Source: Eledone cirrhosa
Taxonomy: Eukaryota
Assembly (NCBI GenBank): GCA_964016885.1
Contig: OZ024757.1
Location: forward strand, 18,662,001-18,726,000
Length of the DNA: 64,000 bases
Direction: 5' to 3'
Positions 49,503-51,011 of the stretch are shown piece by piece (the stretch's first letter is position 1; the number at the start of each line of letters is the position of its first letter). The translations under genes were made by a program, and so were the position numbers. The notes beneath the pieces were generated by a model. The model saw only the letters and a list, made by a program, of their open reading frames with translations, ran no database searches and was not told where the DNA came from.

Positions 49503-49686
49503 CATACATACATAGGTGTATATATACATAGGTGCATACAGACATATACACATATATATATATTTGGATAATATTCCAGTTCCTAAGAGAAATAACAACA
49601 CTACCAGGAGCTGAACATATCAATGGATTGGAGGATTAAAGCACACTTCAACAACATGTGTACCTGTCTTTCCCACACCAATTCGG

Positions 49687-49741
49687 ACTGCCTGAAGAGG
49701 TCGCAGCCAATGATGGCTCTCACCGAAATATATATAGCAGT
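49687..49741 (+). ncRNA. Type-I hammerhead ribozyme (family D)
   Basis: ACTGC CTGAAGA GGTcgcAGCCA atga TGGCTctcACC GAAA TATATA TA GCAGT. Perfect stem I, G-C-closed stem II, palindromic stem III. Confidence 0.85.
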
Positions 49742-50000
49742 ATATCTATAATTTGTAATAAACGAAGCCAAATTTTACATATTTGACTTAATTATTTTAC
49801 ATTACTCCGGAGTAAACAAACCAGCCTGCGTACTTCGTCGAGCGCTCCAATCTGCATACTGAGGTGTTGGTAAACAACCAACATATACTCAAAATGTATT
49901 TATATATATATATAGTTATATATATATATAGTTATATTGATATGTTGATTTAAAACTGCACTATTCACAAGTGTTTTTTAACCTTCATATCATGTCTTCC

Positions 50001-50071
50001 TATTTTATCTGATGAAAACACAAATATTATTGCATGATGATATTTGTTTTTGAAATGCGCATAATAAAATA
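50001..50071 (+). ncRNA. Type-I hammerhead ribozyme (family C)
   Basis: TATTTTAT CTGATGA ... GAAA TGCGCA TA ATAAAATA. Confidence 0.8.
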
Positions 50072-50111
50072 CACGGAACTCTTTTAACCATCTTTTGATC
50101 TTATATATTAG

Positions 50112-50153
<42 letters not shown>

Positions 50154-50487
50154 TTACATACATAAATGAAACAGTTCTAGTCCTGTAGAAACAATATATA
50201 TATATACATACATGCATTCTCTCCCTTCTTTCGAAAAGAAGTAAGTGACATAGTCACTACTTTAAAACCGATAGCGTAAGGTCTTCTAAATGTTTTTAAT
50301 TAACCGTAGGGTATATTGCCAAATATACTATACATACATTCATGTATACATCGCTATTTCTGAGCGCCAATCCTAATTCCTAATTTTTGCTGGACCAGCA
50401 ATCGTTCTGTATAATCAACTCCTGATTATTATTGGAATTCTATAAGAATCCAGCTTCTATAATTTTCGGCGGAAGCAGGGGTTGCAT

Positions 50488-50529
50488 GGCTCTGATGATC
50501 GCCAACCAGCGTGAAACAGACTGTCAGCT
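50488..50529 (+). ncRNA. Type-I hammerhead ribozyme variant (U-U at base of stem II)
   Basis: GGCT CTGATGA tCGC caacca GCGt GAAA CAG a CTG TC AGCT; GUC triplet. Confidence 0.7.
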
Positions 50530-50691
50530 TCTCTCCCTTCTTTCGCCGAAGAAAAGTAAGTAACATAGTCACTACTTTTAAACTGATAGCGTATGGTATT
50601 CTAAATGTTTTTAATTAAACATACGGTATATTGCCAAATATACTATACATACATTCATGTATATATATATATAGATCATTACAACAGCAGA

Positions 50692-50776
50692 GGTCCGACG
50701 AGCTTTTGATTCCAGAGTCGAGCCACATCGATACAGATCGAACATTGAGCTGACCAATACCGAAACGCGCGTCACC
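50692..50776 (+). ncRNA. Degenerate hammerhead
   Basis: GGT CCGACGA G..(long stem II)..C GAAA CGCGCG TC ACC; core has a U4-to-C change. Confidence 0.45.
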
Positions 50777-51011
50777 AATAAATAAAGGTAATGAAGACTG
50801 AACAAATCGTCCTTGTATTGGTGGATTGGCAGTATCGGTAGAGAGTCGGACGCCATGCTTTGAAGCATAGAGTTGCTTTATGATCTGAGTTGAAATCCCG
50901 CCGAGGTTAACTTTGCCTTTCATCCTTACGGGGTCGATAAAGTACCAGTAATGCATTGGGGTAATTGCTGGCCTTGTGCCAAAAGTAGAAACAATTATTA
51001 TTATATATATT

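Follow-up and report, generated by a model that had tools for sequence, protein, structure and literature searches.

The closest described relatives of the hammerhead motifs analysed here are the ribozymes in the pseudo-LTRs (pLTRs) of Penelope-like elements, which are type I hammerheads with a short palindromic stem III and a long stem II (PMC4209133, PMC8557442). Thousands of such hammerheads per genome, in many families and with opposite-strand pairs, are reported in PMC4209133. In the double-hammerhead model of that paper, stems I and III form between the two partners, and such ribozymes showed no detectable cleavage as monomers and low cleavage as dimers. Penelope-like elements themselves are described with 5' truncations, partial tandems, inverted 5' copies, a tail of 30-40 bp and a bias for microsatellites, and the role of their hammerhead is stated as unclear (PMC8557442). 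The cutting of AT-rich DNA and the origin of the tail were demonstrated in vitro (PMC11167929), and according to PMC6765202 new copies of these elements tend to land within or next to older ones. A second related system are the metazoan non-LTR retrozymes, for which units of 150-450 bp are reported (PMC7229834); retrozymes were derived from pLTRs according to Li et al. (bioRxiv 10.64898/2026.07.22.740005). Octopod genomes contain Penelope-like and Dong-R4 elements and transposable element hotspots, as described in PMC13282606, where hammerheads and ribozymes are unmentioned in the main text.

The window analysed here is a stretch of 64,000 nucleotides of Eledone cirrhosa (contig OZ024757.1, 18,662,001 to 18,726,000), and all positions are counted from its first letter. 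Four hammerhead motifs, termed H1 to H4, were found between 49687 and 50776 together with the 3' half of a fifth family. All of them are on the + strand and TA runs lie between them, as had been seen in a preliminary description of the sequence (Table 1). The elements that carry these motifs are probably truncated 3' ends (pseudo-LTRs) of Penelope-like elements or non-autonomous derivatives of these that reached a single TA field in successive insertions and have decayed since then. The locus is likely a dense example of known biology.

Table 1. Features of the hammerhead cluster and its direct neighbours in the window
Feature	Position	Strand	Description
5'-truncated non-LTR retrotransposon, 3' part	48202..49498	+	inserted in (TACA)n; ORF 47940-49421, Pfam zf-RVT E 6e-6
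Element 1	49564..49893	+	bounds taken from flanking TA runs
H1 type I hammerhead	49687..49741	+	core CUGAAGA 49692, GAAA 49725, palindromic stem III 8/8, cut 49736/49737
(TA)n spacer	49894..49939	.	
Element 2, ~165-nt family	49940..50105	+	shared 5' boundary in three copies
H2 type I hammerhead	50001..50071	+	core CUGAUGA 50009, long stem II, GAAA 50052, cut 50063/50064
(TA)n spacer	50102..50163	.	
Coreless 3' half of fifth hammerhead family	50164..50190	+	27 bp; GAAA 50168, stem III, UA 50186-50187
(TA)/(TACA) spacer	50193..50213	.	
Element 3	50217..50660	+	1.4 units with a period of 312 nt; 50217-50348 has its second copy at 50529-50660; high-copy
H3 canonical-like type I hammerhead	50478..50537	+	core CUGAUGA 50492, GAAA 50513, cut 50525/50526
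(TA)n spacer	50660..50675	.	
Element 4, ~130-nt family	50684..50815	+	high-copy; ends near 50815 before TA-rich tail
H4 degenerate type I hammerhead	50692..50776	+	core CCGACGA 50695 (U4C), GAAA 50762, cut 50773/50774
SINE-like repeat	50820..51007	+	abundant, 36 BLAST pieces in window

The motifs were scanned with a hammerhead descriptor. H1, H2 and H3 were strict matches with intact CUGANGA/GAAA/UH cores and with the stem I starts that had been described (49687, 50001 and 50488), whereas no strict match occurred in 2000 dinucleotide shuffles of 49560-50820 or in 60 block shuffles of the window. The RNA 5' ends proposed earlier (49737, 50064 and 50526) agree with cuts after 49736, 50063 and 50525. 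Constrained folds of H1 to H4 gave three helices round the core that are open at stem I, with stem II of H3 and H4 complete only when the letters of their families were used. Stem I has 5, 8, 4 and 3 bp in H1, H2, H3 and H4, respectively, and stem III is self-complementary at 8/8 positions in H1, H2 and H4 and at 8/9 in H3. Folding z-scores, which were -0.5 to -1.7 for H1-H4, were discarded as evidence. The motifs are real and mostly as first described.

When the hammerhead models of Rfam were applied, no motif reached a gathering threshold, and H1 and H2 were unmatched up to an E value of 10. H3 best matched Hammerhead_HH9 (RF02275) with 21.9 bits against a gathering score of 52 (E 0.014), and the 3' part of H4 matched Hammerhead_1 (RF00163) with 20.2 bits against 34 (E 0.079), so that both resemble the Rfam families weakly and far under their gathering scores. 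Matches to miRNA families at low thresholds were rejected as microsatellite artefacts. The term minimal, which had been used for these hammerheads, does not fit H3, which has a 4-bp stem II in its family form, a 6-nt loop, a distal stem I and HH9 as its best match.

Whether the elements belong to separate families was followed with reads and contigs from 4 of 23 listed runs, which were compared with 50155-50830 only, a region that lies downstream of H1 and H2. In organism A, 8750 contigs of run X1 and 5753 reads of run X21, a RAD library, covered this region in two blocks (50224-50660 and 50684-50821), and 22 contigs of organism B (run X4) covered parts of both. Run X15, presumably an RNA run, gave no match and does not serve as evidence on expression. 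The depth was near zero at 50661-50683, the TA run between the H3 and H4 families, where the bin was partly skipped as a repeat. The totals indicate a high copy number and are not copy numbers themselves. H3 and H4 belong to two separate high-copy families. Searches for the H4-family pattern in metagenome and viral contigs and for the H2-family pattern in metagenome contigs gave no match in either case.

The copies at this locus differed from the majority of their families at 33 of the 40 differences listed, and thus at 22 or more positions over the 414 nt of element 3 and at 11 or more over the 140 nt of element 4, corresponding to a divergence of at least 5% and at least 8%, respectively. 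In both H3 and H4, one pair of stem II is broken at this locus, at 50499 and 50760, and the family letters repair it. Elements 3 and 4 are therefore old, drifting copies. In H3, the base of stem II is a U.U at this locus and an A-U pair in most of the family depth, where a T to A change at 50499 (15502/22193 of the X1 depth, 70%; 299/565 X21 reads) closes the stem. A further change, T to G at 50482 (3458/3747, 92%), perfects the distal stem I.

The preliminary description had a degenerate hammerhead at 50692. The motif exists, but its short form was wrong; it is one long motif with a 60-nt branched stem II (motif 50695-50773), a stem I of GGU/ACC and a palindromic CGCGCG. In a relaxed scan it had a descriptor score of 6, which was reached 0.6 times on average in 25 shuffled windows. 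The score is within the shuffle range, so the sequence alone is no proof and H4 rests on the read evidence. The letter C at this locus is replaced at 50760 by G in 55932/57137 of the X1 depth (98%) and in 766/888 X21 reads, and this G closes stem II. With G50760 and five other family letters, the constrained fold of H4 improved from -9.0 to -22.5 kcal/mol. For the core position 50696, a C to T change was absent among the 40 differences listed (92 more exist). Two other candidates were rejected. A short hammerhead at 50692 with GAGC in place of GAAA is disfavoured by the family letter at 50760, which favours the long form, and for a separate hammerhead at 50744-50779, suggested by the Rfam alignment, the family letters C50744 and T50754 push the sequence farther from a stem I and a core. 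Loose ends of element 4 were observed in the reads at 50796 and 50819.

Element 3 contains a repeat pair (50217-50342 and 50529-50657) with 90% identity, and H3 sits at the unit junction. The flanks of the motifs, which had been regarded as unrelated, indeed come from separate families, but this pair is an exception. The order repeat-spacer-ribozyme-repeat was spanned by overlapping contigs with 19-30 differences. The 312-nt period and the HH9-like fold correspond to what defines a retrozyme, a non-coding unit of 150-450 bp with a canonical type I hammerhead, and the family of H3 probably represents a retrozyme-type repeat of 312 nt. Like the metazoan non-LTR retrozymes (PMC7229834; 10.64898/2026.07.22.740005), element 3 combines such a period with a canonical-like hammerhead and a high copy number. 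The non-LTR retrozymes in these accounts occur as dimers or multimers that contain two ribozymes and as circular RNA, whereas element 3 has 1.4 units and one ribozyme at this locus. Joints that go back by 312 nt were rejected as proof of multimers, since they can arise from the 90% repeat itself. In 398 reads of X21 and 33 contigs of X1, loose ends at 50348 were followed by (TA)n, and 272 X21 reads ended about 30 nt further, at 50377; this spacing fits the tail of 30-40 bp described in PMC8557442 and PMC11167929. X21 read ends at 50298-50301, 50382, 50436-50439 and 50616 were not regarded as biological since they are AATT sites and likely restriction cuts.

The first repeat of element 3 starts 1-4 nt past the position equivalent to the H3 cut site. 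For a 312-nt unit, such a coincidence has a probability of about 1% by chance, calculated for one copy. The 5' end is thus as expected for a template that a ribozyme had cut, but this concerns a single copy, and in the other families of the window the truncation points lie elsewhere. If the copies of element 3 throughout the genome start at the cut site, the role of the hammerhead in Penelope-like elements would become testable from DNA alone.

Element 1 had no second copy within the 64-kb window. For element 2, the stretch at 33.0-34.2 kb contains two nearly complete copies and half of a third, with 96% identity to 33022-33188 and 90% to 34047-33884; an extension of about 90 nt, present at 33190-33277 and 34115-34201, is missing from element 2. 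H2 has a palindromic UGCGCA, and across the three copies 75 of 75 cells were paired, with six one-sided and no two-sided changes. Because the structure had been taken from one of these copies, the pairing is mild support. The fifth-family half, noted earlier at 50165, was found at 50164-50190. It is identical to 20023-19997 (27/27) and to 20059-20084 (26/26) and matches both arms at 45774-45863 at 25 of 26 positions. A family copy at 45841 carries CUGAUGA and a 7-bp stem I, which identifies the piece at 50164 as the coreless half of this family; judged from its sequence, it should be unable to cleave in cis by itself. Copies of the H2 family and of family 5 are dispersed at other TA runs in the window.

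Three further observations concern family 5. At 20043 and 45820, all four arms seen have a U.U at the base of stem II, and the stem III segment of 14 nt has an internal CUAG palindrome. Every copy in the window has a change in the core or a truncated stem I. The end of the fragment at 50184-50195 shares 11 letters with the 3' end of the abundant SINE, possibly by a template switch or a microhomology join.

The proposal that the locus is a landing pad for ribozyme-bearing retroelements was supported by the separate families, by the dispersed copies of the H2 family and the half motif at TA runs and by arms and tails like those of Penelope elements. Head-to-head inverted truncated arms were found at 5683-5888, 19997-20084, 32994-33053, 33874-34201, 45762-45875 and 57189-57227, an arrangement known from PMC8557442 and PMC4209133. 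As expected for pLTR ends, the cut sites lie about 40-160 nt before the 3' ends of the elements and stem III is self-complementary. Partial tandem or inverted 5'-truncated insertions, with an optional tail, were observed in element 3 and in the families of H2 and of the half motif, and were not seen for elements 1 and 4. An open reading frame for a Penelope reverse transcriptase or GIY-YIG endonuclease linked to the ends was found neither in the window nor in the read pieces, the longest of which are below 300 nt, and profile scans of three open reading frames in the window gave zf-RVT or nothing; the mobilising enzyme is therefore inferred.

The locus shares much with the pLTR hammerheads described in PMC4209133 and PMC8557442: the type I fold with a short palindromic stem III and a long stem II, a multitude of families in one genome, truncated copies that are mostly solitary, microsatellite targets, opposite-strand pairs 100-700 bp apart, inverted 5'-truncated arms and an optional tail. 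It differs from the hammerheads in these accounts by five families in 1.1 kb on one strand with no linked RT/GIY-YIG open reading frame seen, and by the 60-nt branched stem II and the U4C core of H4.

To account for such an arrangement, a reverse transcriptase/GIY-YIG endonuclease of the Penelope type would nick TA-rich DNA and copy each RNA from near its 3' end, mostly halting early. Every insertion would keep TA on both sides, so that the site would stay open to further hits. Tandem transcripts of the parent elements would be processed by ribozymes that dimerise within their family via the palindromic stem III; the ribozymes would have served the parent transcripts and be passengers at this locus. 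Target-site duplications are unreadable within TA.

The density of the cluster was then compared with the rest of the window, which had 13 descriptor matches. Nine of them are outside the cluster: one is probably chance (at 1332, with a score of 7 inside the shuffle range), three belong to one triplication and five are others. Several further half or core-mutated hammerhead copies are also present. Under a uniform model within the window, applied post hoc, 4 of 10 events within 1 kb had a P value of 0.0027, or 0.0004 when the same strand was also required, and the three intact cores alone gave 0.035. At P 0.0027, random insertion at the window density is insufficient and calls for the assumption of a hotspot; the cluster is most simply explained by a hotspot for targeting. 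A uniform scatter of very abundant elements, from which a dense spot was picked afterwards, is very unlikely to be the whole explanation. At 0.10-0.16 events per kb, a Poisson model does predict 3-23 one-kb bins with four or more events per Gb, 0.4-3 of them on one strand. However, such a cluster would be rare in any single window, and the six background events are themselves clumped, with four of the six within 3.95 kb (P 0.012) and two forming an inverted pair.

The common strand raises another explanation, in which each new RNA started from the end of its predecessor, by priming or by a template switch, so that mixed families formed a chain on one strand at an internal TA field. All five elements, the upstream LINE and the 13 SINE pieces in 42995-50820 are on the + strand, the P value for a same-strand cluster is 0.0004 under the uniform model, Terminons are known to form head-to-tail arrays (PMC6431247) and there are reports of insertions next to older copies (PMC6765202). 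This P value is post hoc, however, local tandem copies make up many of the SINE pieces, motifs on both strands occur in the other dense patch at 30.0-34.0 kb, and TA runs of 16-60 nt part every element, as independent insertions predict. Counting against independent insertions, five elements in a symmetric TA target would all point the same way with a chance of 1 in 16. We consider a polarised chain unlikely. With the Terminon/Athena chains of PMC6431247 the locus shares arrays of 5'-truncated retroelements that end in hammerheads and have a common orientation. The Terminon chains are giant, coding and located at telomeres, with telomeric-repeat joints, in contrast to the internal, tiny array with (TA)n joints seen here. 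It is also rather doubtful, though conceivable, that directed chaining of mixed families by Penelope-type machinery, with priming at the 3' flanks of earlier elements, took place together with element 3 being a 312-nt retrozyme with a ribozyme-set 5' end. In such a case, the reverse transcript of element 3 would have passed the uncut ribozyme and stopped at the ribozyme-made 5' end, and the locus would be genomic evidence for in vivo cutting by ribozymes that set insertion ends.

Under the preferred reading of successive insertions into a TA field, the locus adds several hammerhead families that are uncalled at Rfam thresholds, among them one form with a long stem II and a probable retrozyme of 312 nt. 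At the density of the window, the genome would have one such motif about every 6-10 kb, and the locus illustrates the accumulation of hammerheads in TA fields. In titles and abstract openings on octopus or cephalopod hammerheads and Terminon chains, a search scope outside which most subscription papers lie, no such mixed cluster was found. These motifs may already figure in the family tables of PMC8557442 and PMC4209133.

The cleavage of a read-through transcript into pieces of about 330 and 460 nt had been proposed earlier. The arithmetic is correct (327 and 462 nt), but the cutting is doubtful because no dimer can form between any two ribozymes of the locus and because the LINE before them lacks its 5' part; in addition, H3 and H4 have broken stems. 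When the motifs were paired in silico, dimers had a stem I of 3-8 bp in the four self pairs and of 0-2 bp in all 12 mixed pairs, so each motif is compatible with itself only. The predicted active monomer fractions of H1 to H4 were 5e-5, 1e-4, 1e-7 and 3e-13, from a nearest-neighbour model that has neither tertiary contacts nor a positive control. As single copies that lack a cis partner, the ribozymes are predicted to cleave little at this locus. Pieces of 327, 462 and 248 nt would be expected only if partners of the same family acted in trans or if monomers cut to some extent, and H1 and H2 would be the best candidates for cleavage by their integrity.

A functional cassette, in which a read-through transcript is cut into RNAs of 327, 462 and 248 nt that are useful to the host, is accordingly set against these results. 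Three intact cores share one strand, H1 and H2 have kept their full stems, and dimer partners could come in trans from same-family transcripts of other loci. Nevertheless, we regard a cassette as highly improbable: the mixed pairs offer no compatible partner in cis, the monomer fractions predicted by the model described above do not exceed 1e-4, H3 and H4 have copy-specific stem breaks, the LINE upstream is 5'-truncated, and comparable ribozymes are reported in PMC4209133 to cleave weakly as dimers, with no cleavage detected for monomers. Nothing points to a host function.

The open reading frame of the upstream non-LTR element begins in microsatellite sequence, and the element itself starts at about 48202 right after (TACA)n. 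The reverse transcriptase core is absent from this copy, and without its 5' end the element is an unlikely promoter. We take its motifs to be a zinc knuckle and a restriction-like endonuclease; its protein gave no useful PDB match, and its Atlas neighbours, which are unnamed eukaryotic proteins, gave no clade name. The 3' end is repeated at 32814-32994 with 96% identity. Both copies end in (TACA)n, which suggests microsatellite-specific targeting, and both are less than 0.5 kb from an H2-family element, with a direct abutment at 32994. The 13 SINE pieces between 42995 and 50820 are all on the + strand with local tandem arrays at 42997-44900, and SINE pieces elsewhere are in mixed orientation. 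In its microsatellite load and its SINE the window resembles octopod genomes.

Palindromic or inverted hammerhead insertions at TA runs were also observed at 32994-33277, 57130-57290 and 29931-30608, and at 5683-5888 the arms differ in the sequence of stem II and share stems I and III. A tandem triplication of about 1.2 kb at 60285-64000, likely a local duplication, contains, besides microsatellites, hammerheads of a sixth family whose stem II is long (cores at 60914, 62130 and 63334); its three same-family ribozymes could dimerise in cis. MITE-like inverted repeats, in which no hammerhead was detected, lie at 51002-51096, 9027-9192, 12104-12565 and 58631-58806, and the third of these contains SINE pieces. 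A second retrotransposon remnant is present on the - strand at 54288-55076, where an open reading frame matches zf-RVT (E 5e-6).
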